42,379 bases of DNA from a virus. Location: the UHGV virus genome UHGV-1834803. One strand, given 5' to 3'. Shown here one piece after another: positions 23,042 to 26,853 of this stretch (the first letter of the stretch is position 1; the number at the start of each line of letters is the position of its first letter). The notes under the pieces are model-generated. The model worked only from the letters and a program-made list of their open reading frames with translations, ran no database searches and was not told the DNA's origin. The position numbers and the translations under genes are program-made.

Positions 23042-23254
23042 TTAGTGTATTTTCTTCAACAGACCCCAAAGTGTTCCGGCTTTTGTAGTCAGTTTTCCTG
23101 TTTCTGGATCGTACATACGCCATTCACGCCGCTGGTGGACGATATACCCATCTTCACGTTCCAGACGCTCAAGAATGCCAGGCTGCTTGAAACCCTTAGC
23201 ACGCCAGTATCCGCTTGTTTTCTCGATTTCCAGACCTGCCAGTGTTAATGCCAT
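23042..23254 (-). CDS. hypothetical protein (70 aa)
   Basis: Intact ORF abutting the next gene. Confidence 0.35.
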   Translation of the reverse strand: MALTLAGLEIEKTSGYWRAKGFKQPGILERLEREDGYIVHQRREWRMYDPETGKLTTKAGTLWGLLKKIH

Positions 23255-23589
23255 TATCCAACCTCCTTGCAGTCATCGAAAAGGTAGCTTTGCTGAGAAG
23301 CGTGAACGCCATAGAAGCCCTTGTATTTGTTGTATACGAAGTGGTCTTCTCCGACGCCGGTTAATTTGCCATTACGATTTGTGAGATATGGGGATGACAA
23401 CACTCGATCGTCACGCACAACATAGAACTGGTCGCCGCTGTCTACGACCATCGCTCCATATGGTGCTTTTATGACGTCGGTAAGAGCGCCATTCTTAACG
23501 TCGGCTACAGACATTTCACACTGATAAACAGTGGTGTCGGCCACAACGATCGAAGAAAGGAACAACAGCGCGAATGGGATGGCCTTCAT
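23254..23589 (-). CDS. hypothetical secreted protein (111 aa)
   Basis: N-terminal signal-peptide-like segment MKAIPFALLFLSSIVVA. Confidence 0.45.
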   Translation of the reverse strand: MKAIPFALLFLSSIVVADTTVYQCEMSVADVKNGALTDVIKAPYGAMVVDSGDQFYVVRDDRVLSSPYLTNRNGKLTGVGEDHFVYNKYKGFYGVHASQQSYLFDDCKEVG

Positions 23590-23765
23590 GCTGCCACCTC
23601 TTTGATTACATCAAATGCTGAATTAAATACGAGCACGATAGCCAAAGCGTTTATGACTACGTCGTGCACCGGGGAAAAGACTTTACGAATGACACTAGTG
23701 AAAATGCAGTCGATGACAAAAGCTATTGAAACGATGAGTAACAAGTATTCAATAAAAATCTTCAT
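23586..23765 (-). CDS. small membrane protein (59 aa, below track cutoff)
   Basis: Hand-translated MKIFIEYLLLIVSIAFVIDCIF...; stop overlaps next start (ATGA). Confidence 0.3.
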   Translation of the reverse strand: MKIFIEYLLLIVSIAFVIDCIFTSVIRKVFSPVHDVVINALAIVLVFNSAFDVIKEVAA

Positions 23766-24135: not shown

Positions 24136-24561
24136 TCAATCATCTTGTTTAGGGAAAAACTGTTCAATAACTCTGTCAACGGCTGTGTCTATATGGAGTA
24201 GATGCCACACAACCATATCTTTGCTCCCCATGCCTTGTGTGAATATCACGTCATACTTACGCCATGCGCAGTGGAACCAATATGCTGAGTCATCAATTGG
24301 TAAATCCTCTCCCGCCTCTTTGAAGTATTTCAGCAGCATTGCTTGCTCTGCCGTTGGCGTTGGACCTATTTCCTGAGCGTACATACGGATAAATCGCTGC
24401 CAGTCTGTCTCGTCGGTGGTCGGATCTGGTGGATTCATTTCGGCGATAGCGTTTCGTAGCTGATGCGCCCAATCAGGTTCAGGAAAGCCTTTTGATACTT
24501 CATCATCAATAACATCCAGAGCCGCGTTTGCGGCATCGTAGAGTTTCTTAATAGCTGTCAT
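24136..24561 (-). CDS. hypothetical protein (141 aa)
   Basis: Intact ORF; conserved palindromic motif upstream. Confidence 0.4.
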   Translation of the reverse strand: MTAIKKLYDAANAALDVIDDEVSKGFPEPDWAHQLRNAIAEMNPPDPTTDETDWQRFIRMYAQEIGPTPTAEQAMLLKYFKEAGEDLPIDDSAYWFHCAWRKYDVIFTQGMGSKDMVVWHLLHIDTAVDRVIEQFFPKQDD

Positions 24562-24595: not shown

Positions 24596-24610
24596 ATAAG
24601 ATAATTGCGA

Positions 24611-24636
24611 TAAAAAAGGCGTCCAACTGGACGCCT
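24611..24636 (-). terminator. intrinsic terminator (GGCGTCC-AACT-GGACGCC + T6 on minus strand)
   Basis: Perfect 7-bp stem with T-run, right after the stop of the SPFH gene. Confidence 0.55.
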
Positions 24637-24652: not shown

Positions 24653-25483
24653 TTATTTCACTGTAATGAAAGGAGTGTTAGCCCCTTGAGTCATGTACTG
24701 CGGTAACTGGCCATTCCATTTATTGATGGCTTCCAGCTCCATAACGTTCGGGTTTTGACGCAGAGCTTCACCGCGCAGACGAATGGCGTCGGCTTCTGCT
24801 TGCGCACGAGCACGGATAGCATCAGCTTCACCATTAGCCTGTTCACGTAGCATATTCGCCTCAGCTTTACGCTGTTCAACTTCCTGCTGACGTTGCAGAG
24901 TACGCTGGTTAGCCGTTACTTTGGCGTTGATAGATTCAATGACGGTTTTTGGGTAATCAGGCTTTCCAACCCATGACAGGCTCAGTACCTCAATACCAAC
25001 CGGAGACATCTCTTTCTGAATATCTTTCAGTGCGTTGTCCAGCAATTGTGCCTTACCACCGTCGATAAATGAGTCAGTGGTCATACGGCTGGCCAAACGG
25101 TTTAGAGAGTCGGCAATTTTCTGACGCAGATCTGATTCGGTGATATCGTCTACGCCTTTGCGATAGGTCTGGAACACCGTCGTTACCTTGTCACGATTAA
25201 CCAGATACGCAACGCCAATTTTGTGACCAATAGCAGTACCGTCACTCATCTGGAATGTGAACGGCTCGTCGTAGGTCTTCATTTGTTTGAAGGTCGGGAA
25301 TACGTAAAGTTCGGTGTTAAGACCTGTCCATTGGCGACCAACGCCAACCACTTCACCAATCCCTTTGTCTTCACCTAATTTGTTTACTTTGATGCCAACG
25401 TATCCAGGCTCCACGCGATCACAGCCAGTAAGACCCGTTGTGCAAATAGCCGCCAGAGCAACTGCAAGTAAACCTTTCTGCAT
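24653..25483 (-). CDS. SPFH/band-7 (stomatin/prohibitin-like) lipoprotein
   Basis: Lipobox LTGC after signal peptide; band-7-like core; charged Ala/Glu/Arg-rich coiled-coil tail. Confidence 0.65.
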   Translation of the reverse strand: MQKGLLAVALAAICTTGLTGCDRVEPGYVGIKVNKLGEDKGIGEVVGVGRQWTGLNTELYVFPTFKQMKTYDEPFTFQMSDGTAIGHKIGVAYLVNRDKVTTVFQTYRKGVDDITESDLRQKIADSLNRLASRMTTDSFIDGGKAQLLDNALKDIQKEMSPVGIEVLSLSWVGKPDYPKTVIESINAKVTANQRTLQRQQEVEQRKAEANMLREQANGEADAIRARAQAEADAIRLRGEALRQNPNVMELEAINKWNGQLPQYMTQGANTPFITVK

Positions 25484-25486
25484 TAC

Positions 25487-25687
25487 TTATTTCCCCTTTG
25501 CTTTGATTAATGAGTTGATAAACTTACGACCAGCAATAAGACCGATTACAGGAGCACCAAAACCAACGATAACTCCAAACATGACGGCTAAATCACTCTT
25601 GGTAGAAATCAGCGACGGAACCAGTAAACCGTAGATGAGAGCCACTGAAAGGCCTGTGGCCACTGCCAATAGATAGATTTTGATCAT
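25487..25687 (-). CDS. small membrane protein (66 aa)
   Basis: Two hydrophobic helices; 4 nt upstream of the SPFH gene, probably co-transcribed. Confidence 0.45.
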   Translation of the reverse strand: MIKIYLLAVATGLSVALIYGLLVPSLISTKSDLAVMFGVIVGFGAPVIGLIAGRKFINSLIKAKGK

Positions 25688-25749
25688 GTGTTTTCCTATG
25701 TGGTTGTTATGTGAAAATAATAAGTAAGTACTTATATATTTTCAAGAGA

Positions 25750-25774
25750 TAAAAAAGGCGTCCTGTGGACGCCT
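25750..25774 (-). terminator. intrinsic terminator (GGCGTCC-TGT-GGACGCC + T6 on minus strand)
   Basis: Same stem sequence as the 24611 terminator; follows the RecA-like gene. Confidence 0.55.
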
Positions 25775-25779
25775 TGTGT

Positions 25780-26853
25780 TTACTCTTCTACTGACTCGGT
25801 GGGGTTGTCTTTTGCTCTTCGGTCGTCGATTGCCTGCAAAGCCGCAATGATTTCAGCCAGTGGCTTCTCCCGATACATCTCGACGATCTGCGATTTGGTG
25901 TATTTCTTGTCACCAATTTCAACTCGCCCGCTGGCGTTCTTTGGCAGGTATCCTTCTTCCAGCATGTACTCGACGAGCGATTCGATAACGTCGAGGCCAC
26001 GAGTAGGATCGAAGTAGAATTTCCAGGTGCATTTGCCATACGGTGGTGCAACTTTGTTTTTGATGCATTCTGCGCCTACGTCCTGGCCGATCTTCTCTTT
26101 ACCATCCTTCATCACCGATGCACCAAGACGGATACGTACAGAAGCGTAGAACTTCGGTGAATCTCCACCTGGCGACGTAGTAGGGTCGCCAAACATTACA
26201 CCGATTTTTGTGCGAACCTGATTCAAGAAGATGATGCAGGCGTTGTATTTGCGTGCCCACAAAGCCAGAGTAGGGAAGTTCGCACTCGTCGCACGAGCCA
26301 GTGCCGTATTGTCGTTCATGTTTAGCTGATCTTTGTCTTTGGCAGTGCCTTCAGCCATCTTTTCGAACTTCTCGGCTTTGGAGTTCGGAACCATAGACGC
26401 AAGAGAGTCAGCCACGATACAGATAGGTGCTGATTCGGGGATAAGCTCTTCATCACGAACCAATTTAAGTATTGTGCCGATCAACTCTACAGAGTCTTCG
26501 AAGGTATCTGGCTGCTTGTATACCCACTGACCGTCATCCTCATCTGCGTTCAGGCCATTGGCTACAGCCAGGCCAACGTCAAAACTGTTTTCATGATCGA
26601 GGAATACCGCCAGACCATCTTGTTTCTGTGTGGAGATCATTGCTGCTGTTGCAAGGAACGTTTTCCCTGCACTTGGAGGACCGAATACTTCGACGATACG
26701 ACCACATGGGAAGCCGCCATCGTAACGACCAGAAATAGCTTTGTTTAACGGTGGAAAGCCTGTATCAATCCAATGAGTTACTTTCTGAATTTCGTCGTTG
26801 CTACCGATTTTCTTTTTCAGAGCAAGTGCCAGTGCGGATTTTCCTTTTGCCAT
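25780..26853 (-). CDS. RecA-like recombinase
   Basis: Walker A GPPSAGKT and RecA-like core layout. Confidence 0.8.
   Translation of the reverse strand: MAKGKSALALALKKKIGSNDEIQKVTHWIDTGFPPLNKAISGRYDGGFPCGRIVEVFGPPSAGKTFLATAAMISTQKQDGLAVFLDHENSFDVGLAVANGLNADEDDGQWVYKQPDTFEDSVELIGTILKLVRDEELIPESAPICIVADSLASMVPNSKAEKFEKMAEGTAKDKDQLNMNDNTALARATSANFPTLALWARKYNACIIFLNQVRTKIGVMFGDPTTSPGGDSPKFYASVRIRLGASVMKDGKEKIGQDVGAECIKNKVAPPYGKCTWKFYFDPTRGLDVIESLVEYMLEEGYLPKNASGRVEIGDKKYTKSQIVEMYREKPLAEIIAALQAIDDRRAKDNPTESVEE

Follow-up and report, generated by a model that had tools for sequence, protein, structure and literature searches.

Gene content and identity of the element

The subject of this analysis is a two-gene cassette on the minus strand of the UHGV virus genome UHGV-1834803, of which the complete stretch of 42,379 nucleotides was analysed and is referred to below as the window. 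The window is an SSU5-type E. coli phage-plasmid, with 98.6% identity to "Escherichia phage CMS-2020a" and 93.6% identity to the phage-plasmid Cyrano (E. coli LF82, SSU5 type), which agrees with the phage-like character ascribed to it in a preliminary description made from the letters of the DNA alone. The cassette consists of a gene for a small membrane protein of 66 amino acids (aa), followed by a gene for a 276-aa lipoprotein with an SPFH (Band 7) domain. It has a promoter of its own, is bracketed by two terminators with a common stem, and lies between a RecA-like gene and a gene of the DUF7238 family.

The SPFH lipoprotein

The larger product had been assigned a band-7 fold in the preliminary description, in which a domain search lacking that fold was named as the finding that would speak against it. 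The opposite was obtained from a Pfam search, from an AlphaFold2 (AF2) model and from Foldseek comparisons. The 276-aa open reading frame (ORF) matches Pfam Band_7 (PF01145) over residues 23-209, with an E value of 2.6e-30 and a score of 106.2 bits (gathering cutoff 23.6), the match taking in positions 2-176 of the 176 positions of the profile. The protein is also a member of PHROG 200 "lipoprotein" (E 3.7e-107), and its N-terminus, which reads MQKGLLAVALAAICTTGLTG and continues as CDR beyond the cleavage point, is a canonical lipobox signal peptide (LTG before C21, with Asp22 at position +2), so that the earlier assignment as a lipoprotein is upheld. The lipobox was recognized by the pattern [LVI][ASTVI][GAS]C together with an Asp at +2 (the E. 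coli Lol-avoidance rule), an Asp at this position being the inner-membrane retention signal of E. coli lipoproteins. Both the Cys and the Asp at +2 are kept in at least 90% of 15 enterobacterial homologues; among 150 distant cluster representatives the lipobox is present in 93, and the +2 residue is variable there.

The AF2 model has a pLDDT (predicted local distance difference test) of 79 overall and of more than 90 across most of the SPFH domain. It shows an alpha/beta SPFH domain at about residues 23-176, a single long charged helix at 179-243, which corresponds to the charged coiled-coil tail proposed earlier, and a short helix at 245-256. The C-terminal tail (LEAINKWNGxLPxYM...PF) is strongly conserved yet disordered in this monomer model, a combination that is compatible with a cap segment which would fold on assembly. 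The top Foldseek matches in the PDB are HflK/HflC (7vhq, E 1e-13), erlin1/2 and prohibitin, all of them full-length alignments, with stomatin, flotillin, QmcA and the vault shell ranking below. The Foldseek probability is 1.0 to HflK/C, erlin, prohibitin, stomatin, flotillin, QmcA and vault, proteins which form membrane-bound rings or cages. A fold search of BFVD returned only unnamed or generic viral Band 7 proteins. At the level of the sequence profile the kinship is weak and about equal to QmcA, HflK, HflC and prohibitin (E 2e-7 to 1e-3 with a 90-sequence profile), the best PDB match being QmcA with an E value of 2.3e-7, and relatives at 40-55% identity bear the NCBI name "prohibitin family protein".

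The small membrane subunit

The 66-aa protein encoded ahead of the SPFH gene consists of two hydrophobic helices joined by a short conserved turn and ends in a basic C-terminal tail, with the N- and C-termini both predicted to be cytoplasmic. It had been described before as a two-helix membrane protein, and the predicted topology as well as its membership in PHROG 1130 "membrane protein" (moron/host-takeover category; E 2.1e-25) bear this out; no match to it was found in Pfam (E up to 0.1) or in NCBIfam (E up to 0.01). A signature of the turn, G-x3-P-x-[LM]-[IV]-S-[AS]-x-[SD]-[TD]-x-[AL]-[VL]-x2-G, is common to 24 partner sequences.

Of 82 related loci, 80 have a homologous small ORF immediately upstream of the SPFH gene, the two exceptions being P88, in which the partner was missed by the search pattern and was seen directly, and a locus that ends 210 nt upstream of the gene. 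The pair is found in the lambdoid phage phiP27 and the P2-like P88, in the strictly lytic N4-like Erwinia phage S6, rV5-like Klebsiella phage KpS8 (with one extra small ORF between the partner gene and the SPFH gene) and jumbo Salmonella phage PHA46, and also in Vibrio phage CKB-S1, Burkholderia phage phi1026b, a P1-like element and a Leptospirales phage contig. Beyond the 82 loci, adjacency of the partner is seen in at least eight further phage lineages. In Caulobacter phage Magneto a different multi-span protein takes the partner's place.

Gene fusion provides the strongest evidence for the partnership. An exhaustive profile search of 1.84 billion cluster representatives gave 331 clusters at E <1e-30, and in at least 17 of the best 150 of these 50%-identity clusters, which were inspected, the two-helix module with its signature is fused N-terminally to the SPFH protein. 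The fusions are scattered on a rough tree and about half of them have an unfused nearest neighbour, which implies repeated fusion or fission. The window genes are themselves one substitution away from a fusion, since the stop codon of the 66-aa ORF is followed after a gap of 3 nt by the ATG of the SPFH gene in the same frame (TAA GTA ATG), so that only TAA GTA separates the two. The AF2 model of one natural fusion, P0125 (pLDDT 88), shows transmembrane (TM) segments at residues 2-27, 32-54 and 59-72, with the turn at 28-31 between the first two and the SPFH domain after the third. With the basic tail inside, this modelled topology would place both the conserved turn and the SPFH domain in the periplasm and would tie the assembly to the inner membrane. 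The 66-aa protein is regarded here as a conserved, sometimes fused, putative subunit of the SPFH lipoprotein.

As to annotation of the partner, its ORF is unannotated in phiP27 (locus L002, 3304-3492) and in a record named "Escherichia phage P1" (locus L104, about 1290-1520). In many lambdoid and P1-like copies it overlaps the start of the SPFH gene by 20 nt, and a one-base variant shortens it.

Distribution of the family

In a translated search of 50,697 phage records, 377 proved to contain the SPFH protein. The temperate carriers include phiP27, Stx2a-converting phages, P1-like elements, P88 and phi1026b, and the lytic carriers include N4-like, LUZ24-like, rV5-like, FelixO1-like, jumbo, phiCbK-like, crAss-like and Lak phages; of the lytic phages, those examined have the SPFH gene among early or DNA-metabolism genes, away from lysis and structural genes. 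Copies from unrelated enterobacterial phages (lambdoid, P2-like, N4-like, jumbo) share 63-79% protein identity, which argues for exchange between phages combined with strong purifying selection. The family is further present in 738 of 5,426 complete E. coli genomes (about 14%), in 418 chromosomal and 415 plasmid places, and the pair occurs on plasmids and prophages of many clinical Enterobacterales. One fused member was located in a P22-like phage contig and another in a plainly cellular neighbourhood, and two family members are found in genomes of the candidate phyla radiation (CPR) type, beside ribosomal-protein, MurA and MreB genes; a genome scan with a narrower alignment gave 9 loci.

With domain, fold and partner conserved across hundreds of phage, plasmid and prophage records, a chance or artefactual ORF pattern was rejected. 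Some homologues are named "serine protease", "transposase fusion protein" or "RIIB lysis inhibitor" in GenBank; no protease, transposase or rII family was matched, and these names were treated as legacy mis-annotations.

Boundaries of the cassette and the insertion site

The bracketing terminators with identical stems, which had been pointed out in the preliminary description, are readily recovered: a stem AGGCGTCC/GGACGCCT followed by TTTTTTATC is common to both of them, and the stem pattern has two matches in the window, both at the cassette edges, and none in 100 shuffles. Terminator 1 folds at -15.6 kcal/mol (z -6.1) and terminator 2 at -15.5 (z -4.7). A natural empty site is provided by Enterobacter hormaechei pFJMB80149_2 (locus L106, 1411-1560), in which the RecA-like gene is followed by one terminator with the same stem and then by the next backbone gene, without the cassette, and an occupied site by Yersinia pestis pMT1, which carries the cassette with the pair intact. 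When the junctions are aligned, the occupied sites match the empty one through hairpin 1, the promoter starts after the T-run, and the match resumes from hairpin 2. This alignment shows that the promoter, the small gene, the SPFH gene and a terminator constitute an insertion behind the terminator of the RecA-like gene, with duplication of that terminator. In pMT1 terminator 1 (locus L108, 2590-2730) reads GGCGCCC...GGGCGCC, as compared to GGCGTCC...GGACGCC in the window, a paired T>C / A>G change that keeps the stem and thereby supports a functional hairpin. The cassette is a self-contained and horizontally mobile insertion of the moron type, equipped with its own promoter and terminator.

Among sister SSU5-type plasmids the cassette is present or absent at exactly the same site. 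In Klebsiella pneumoniae pKPLSN_1 (locus L105, 783-2372) the site is taken by a 529-aa protein that matches the PADLOC candidate defence family HEC-07 (E 2.3e-30, full length), and in E. coli pM160133_p3 (locus L107, 1-2780) a type I restriction-modification (R-M) system replaces most of the SPFH gene, with the small gene remaining. From these comparisons the site behind the terminator of the RecA-like gene is a variable cargo spot in SSU5-type phage-plasmids. The features of the locus are collected in Table 1.

Table 1. Features of the SPFH cassette and its neighbours, in order of transcription (window coordinates)
Feature	Position	Strand	Remarks
RecA-like gene	25780-26853	-	Upstream of the cassette
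Terminator 1	25747-25775 (hairpin 25755-25775)	-	Terminator scan; ends the RecA-like gene and forms the upstream cassette edge; AAGGCGTCC-ACA-GGACGCCTT then TTTTTTATC
Sigma-70-type promoter, TTGAAA-17 nt-TATTAT	25717-25745	-	Promoter scan
Shine-Dalgarno sequence, AGGA	25694-25697	-	6 nt before the ATG of the small gene
Putative small membrane subunit, 66 aa	25487-25687	-	PHROG 1130
SPFH/Band 7 lipoprotein, 276 aa	24653-25483	-	Pfam Band_7, PHROG 200
Terminator 2	24609-24636 (hairpin 24617-24636, then T-run)	-	Downstream cassette edge; AGGCGTCC-AGTT-GGACGCCT then TTTTTTATC
DUF7238 gene	24136-24561	-	Pfam E 6e-38; PHROG 1451; directly after the cassette

In Cyrano the two genes are annotated as CYRAN_56 ("membrane protein") and CYRAN_57 (under the name "Stomatin-like integral membrane protein"); they belong to the replication/recombination region, where the RecA-like gene lies on one side of them and small hypothetical genes on the other. 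The RecA-like recombinase of the window has 357 aa and no intein. The corresponding gene of Cyrano (2340 nt; locus L001, 7282-9621) and those of many sister plasmids contain an intein with a LAGLIDADG/Hint homing endonuclease, an insertion polymorphism located directly beside the SPFH cassette. In pMT1-type relatives, a NinX/DUF2591 gene is found between the cassette and the DUF7238 gene.

Promoter, palindrome and expression

The promoter of the cassette matches 10 of the 12 consensus positions, and its spacer contains a perfect 10-bp palindrome, TAAGTACTTA, at 25725-25734. The wider motif GTAAGYRCTTAC (25724-25735) has 17 sites in the window at two mismatches or fewer, as compared to 3.7 expected and to no more than 9 in any shuffle; the non-coding 13% of the window holds 10 of the 17. 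Six sites have at most one mismatch (25724-25735, 3813, 6028, 15581, 34828 and 37488), all of them intergenic and 16-208 nt upstream of genes on the minus strand; the other 11 are weaker. Promoter and palindrome are kept in Y. pestis pMT1 and are absent at the Enterobacter empty site. The motif is probably where a regulator of the phage-plasmid binds, and the shared palindrome makes the cassette appear to be wired into a regulon of the element.

Published RNA-seq data for LF82, comparing overnight growth in lysogeny broth (LB) to macrophages at 6 h, allow the transcription of the Cyrano pair to be followed (PMC9928086, S1 Table; units of log2(5+fpkm), where fpkm stands for fragments per kilobase per million). 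The small gene CYRAN_56 rises from 2.32 and 2.32 in LB, which is background, to 7.6-7.7 in macrophages, and the SPFH gene CYRAN_57 from 4.3 and 3.0, likewise background, to 7.25-7.4, while the flanking genes stay low (RecA from about 3.1-3.6 to about 4.1, CYRAN_58 from about 2.3-2.7 to about 4.1; PMC9928086). This rise of the pair between low flanks identifies it as an independent transcription unit that is off in broth and on intracellularly. The pair is not among the Cyrano morons listed by the authors, whose cutoff was set in LB (PMC9928086). It has to be noted that some other genes of Cyrano, the capsid gene and a tail gene among them, also rise in macrophages at 6 h (PMC9928086), and the induction of the pair may be partial derepression.

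A second pair of induced genes is situated about 1 kb downstream of the cassette, on the same strand of the window, at 23254-23589 and 23586-23765 (CYRAN_61 and CYRAN_60, respectively). Of these small overlapping genes, one encodes 111 aa with a signal-peptide-like N-terminus and the other a two-helix membrane protein of 59 aa. In Cyrano they are induced earlier and more strongly than the SPFH pair, from background in LB to 6-7 log2 units after 1 h and to 8.3-8.8 after 6 h, and the next gene, CYRAN_62 ("P1 Cra"), rises together with them in macrophages.

Comparison with known systems

HflK/HflC, which in E. coli encloses FtsH in a periplasmic cage (PDB 7vhq, 7wi3, 9cz2), constitutes the best full-length fold match of the window protein (E about 1e-13) and is built to the same plan, with a membrane anchor, an SPFH domain, a long wall helix (about 65 residues in the window protein) and a C-terminal cap segment. 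It faces the periplasm from the inner membrane, and the same orientation is predicted for the window protein. However, the sequence identity is only 16-17%, the N-terminal TM anchor of HflK/HflC is replaced by a lipid anchor, and in place of two adjacent SPFH paralogues the window has one SPFH gene together with a non-SPFH gene for a 66-aa 2-TM hairpin. Strict membership in HflK/HflC was rejected since the equivalog cutoffs are missed. These missed cutoffs, combined with the weak and even kinship to several SPFH groups, place the window protein in a distinct SPFH subfamily.

The SPFH-NfeD operons (QmcA-YbbJ, PDB 8z5g; YqiK-YqiJ; archaeal stomatin-STOPP) resemble the window in that an SPFH gene stands beside a gene for a small membrane partner, and in the solved complex the helices of the partner lie under the cage. 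The partner in the window differs in having no NfeD/OB-fold domain, its 66 aa being taken up nearly completely by the two TM helices, and the SPFH-NfeD proteins have a cytoplasmic orientation, whereas the window pair is predicted to be periplasmic. Membership in this group was rejected as well, the partner having no Pfam or NCBIfam domain. In a survey of 2009, no NfeD partner was found for the prohibitin-like and HflK/C-like subfamilies (PMC2636767). The prokaryotic prohibitin-like "SPFH4" group (Hinderhofer et al. 2009) is similar to the window protein in length and in its predicted periplasmic orientation, but its description mentions no lipoprotein anchor, 2-TM partner, fusions or phage carriage. 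In PHROGs, of whose families 200 and 1130 the window proteins are clear members, a generic label and a category are given, with no link between the two families.

In its layout the cassette is comparable to the morons of HK97 and lambda-like phages, with which it shares a promoter and terminator of its own, a position between backbone genes, presence or absence among relatives and independent transcription. It differs from them in not being constitutive in the LB lysogen, in having a promoter that carries the element's own operator-like palindrome, and in that the same genes are also found inside early operons of lytic phages.

The SPFH gene as such is already known: public records list it as "SPFH domain-containing protein" or "lipoprotein", and authors of genome papers have commented on SPFH genes in phages. 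No description was found in the literature of the 2-TM subunit or its signature, of the repeated fusions, of the moron-type boundaries with an empty site, of the shared operator, or of the breadth across lytic and temperate phages. The module resembles both the HflK/C and the SPFH-NfeD systems and belongs to neither by the tests applied; on present evidence it is not a categorically new system.

Models for the function of the cassette

In the model favoured here, whose probability is put at somewhat short of even, the cassette encodes a periplasm-facing SPFH cage of the inner membrane that would control a membrane client, with FtsH-type proteostasis as the leading candidate; the assignment to FtsH, taken alone and resting on analogy, is rather unlikely. 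The lipoprotein and the hairpin are probably joined in a single complex at the inner membrane, on its periplasmic face, and by analogy to all the full-length SPFH proteins of this plan whose structures are solved, this complex is probably an oligomeric ring or dome. That it functions as a cage, i.e., by controlling a client, may be suggested by the same analogy.

According to this model, the lipoprotein would stay on the periplasmic face of the inner membrane, because it has an Asp at +2 and because the fused forms have three alpha-helical membrane spans, for which the inner membrane is the necessary location, and it would oligomerise into a ring or dome like those of HflK/C, prohibitin and erlin. 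The hairpin subunits, in a ratio of about 1:1, would be placed in the membrane under or around the cage and would contact it via the conserved periplasmic turn. The cage would then fence off a patch of the inner membrane and control a conserved host client residing there, FtsH-type quality control foremost, with the outcome that inner-membrane function would be preserved or reshaped early in infection or in a stressed lysogen.

An FtsH-type client is put foremost because the outward-facing solved cages among the best matches work with machinery for membrane proteolysis or degradation. Among the best structural matches, HflK/C, prohibitin and erlin are oriented away from the cytoplasm; FtsH is the partner of HflK/C, the m-AAA protease that of prohibitin, and an E3 ligase that of erlin. 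The 63-79% identity between copies from unrelated phages and the cellular and CPR members beside housekeeping genes suggest a conserved host target, and a universally conserved client such as FtsH would explain both the high degree to which the protein is conserved between unrelated phages and its occurrence in minimal cellular genomes. In the survey of 2009, prokaryotic prohibitin-like SPFH proteins were proposed to face the periplasm and maybe to replace HflK/C (PMC2636767).

Several observations weigh against this model. In sequence the protein resembles HflK/C weakly (E 0.007 to 1e-5), and it scores 30.2 bits with the HflC equivalog model TIGR01932, the cutoff of which is 134.4, and 18.7 bits with the HflK model TIGR01933, the cutoff of which is 159.4. 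It follows from this that a role as "FtsH modulator" would be an analogy and not an annotation based on homology. In some divergent members the partner gene is not beside the SPFH gene, namely in the FelixO1-like phage phiEa21-4, in a crAss-like phage and in the LUZ24-like phage TL, and the insertion site holds defence genes in sister plasmids, which points to a role in the exclusion of other phages. In full-text literature searches no experiment on any phage SPFH lipoprotein was found, and the role that the preliminary description had called unclear is accompanied by no published function in the literature searched; what is available is speculation on the control of lysogeny via HflKC (PMC10269572, PMC4936722) and on adsorption or entry (PMC13239085).

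The alternative that survives best is superinfection exclusion or competition between phages, in which the hairpin and the periplasmic lipoprotein would act as a barrier at the inner membrane to DNA entry of, or infection by, other phages, either in early lytic growth or in a stressed lysogen; it is judged plausible, if unlikely. Consistent with it, the cassette is accessory and mobile, and the same site holds the HEC-07-like protein in Klebsiella or the type I R-M system in E. coli pM160133_p3 and is empty in Enterobacter. In lytic phages the cassette lies in early or DNA-metabolism regions, where the T-even exclusion genes are also found, and exclusion proteins are often small inner-membrane proteins or lipoproteins, as in the case of T4 Imm and Sp, TP-J34 Ltp and T5 Llp. 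However, neither protein is matched by any PADLOC-DB v2 model (E up to 0.1), and a known defence system was rejected on that ground. Transcription of the pair is at background when the Cyrano lysogen grows in LB, which argues against constitutive protection there, the sequences of the pair are strongly conserved between unrelated phages and not diversified, and relatives occur in non-phage cellular contexts, including CPR genomes. No phage-excluding SPFH protein was found in the literature searched.

An improbable alternative is a factor of lysogenic conversion or of host fitness in animals, which would be switched on under envelope stress imposed by the host and would strengthen the envelope, and/or would act as a triacylated lipoprotein active on Toll-like receptor (TLR) 2. 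This would agree with the induction of the Cyrano pair in macrophages and with the presence of the intact pair on Y. pestis pMT1 and on many plasmids and prophages of clinical Enterobacterales. It would further agree with a report on PM0222 (OAZ06802.1) of Pasteurella multocida, a prophage-encoded protein of 25-35 kDa that is "HflK/C-like" by description and may be a member of the same subfamily. PM0222 was found in outer-membrane vesicles, signals via TLR1/2, an activity typical of triacylated lipoproteins, and when it is deleted growth becomes slower and virulence in mice is attenuated (PMC9872710); the window protein, in contrast, is predicted to reside at the inner membrane. The family is, however, common in strictly lytic phages, which never form lysogens, so that the lytic copies would be left unexplained, and it is also found in environmental phages and cellular genomes. 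In addition, the concurrent rise of other Cyrano genes, including the capsid gene and a tail gene, allows the induction in macrophages to be read as partial derepression.

A role in the timing of lysis, with the 66-aa protein as a holin- or antiholin-like pore former that would be restrained or timed by the SPFH cage, is very improbable: the small protein formally has the features of a class II holin (two TM helices, N-in/C-in topology, basic tail) and solved SPFH cages do enclose membrane proteins (QmcA-YbbJ, stomatin-aquaporin, HflK/C-FtsH), but no holin family is matched in Pfam or PHROG, the holin, endolysin and spanins of Cyrano (CYRAN_22-25) lie about 30 kb from the cassette, all phage types examined have the cassette in early or replication-recombination regions, and the small protein is fused to the SPFH protein in cellular genomes. 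An identity of the 66-aa protein as a class II holin was rejected on the grounds of its distance from the lysis genes and the missing holin match.

The cage model can also be put in a more general form, in which the cassette would encode a portable, two-subunit, periplasm-facing SPFH cage, the obligate 2-TM hairpin of which would replace the NfeD protein or the second SPFH paralogue, and with which phages of many families would wall off part of the host inner membrane either for the control of FtsH-type proteolysis or for barring competing phages; in this form it is a real possibility, held with considerable doubt.

Implications

SPFH proteins are among the least understood of the universal membrane proteins, and bacterial genetics has yielded only mild phenotypes for them. 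A compact and mobile version is now seen in at least 377 sequenced phages of very different lifestyles, and since phages usually retain only genes that pay, a strong and assayable effect on infection is to be expected. The conserved partner and the clean boundary with a natural empty site make the cassette experimentally tractable, and thereby offer a handle on the old question of what SPFH cages do. If FtsH were the client, the classic hfl (high frequency of lysogenisation) phenotype would gain a connection to a phage-borne gene, and if exclusion were the function, the cassette would represent a new defence mechanism.

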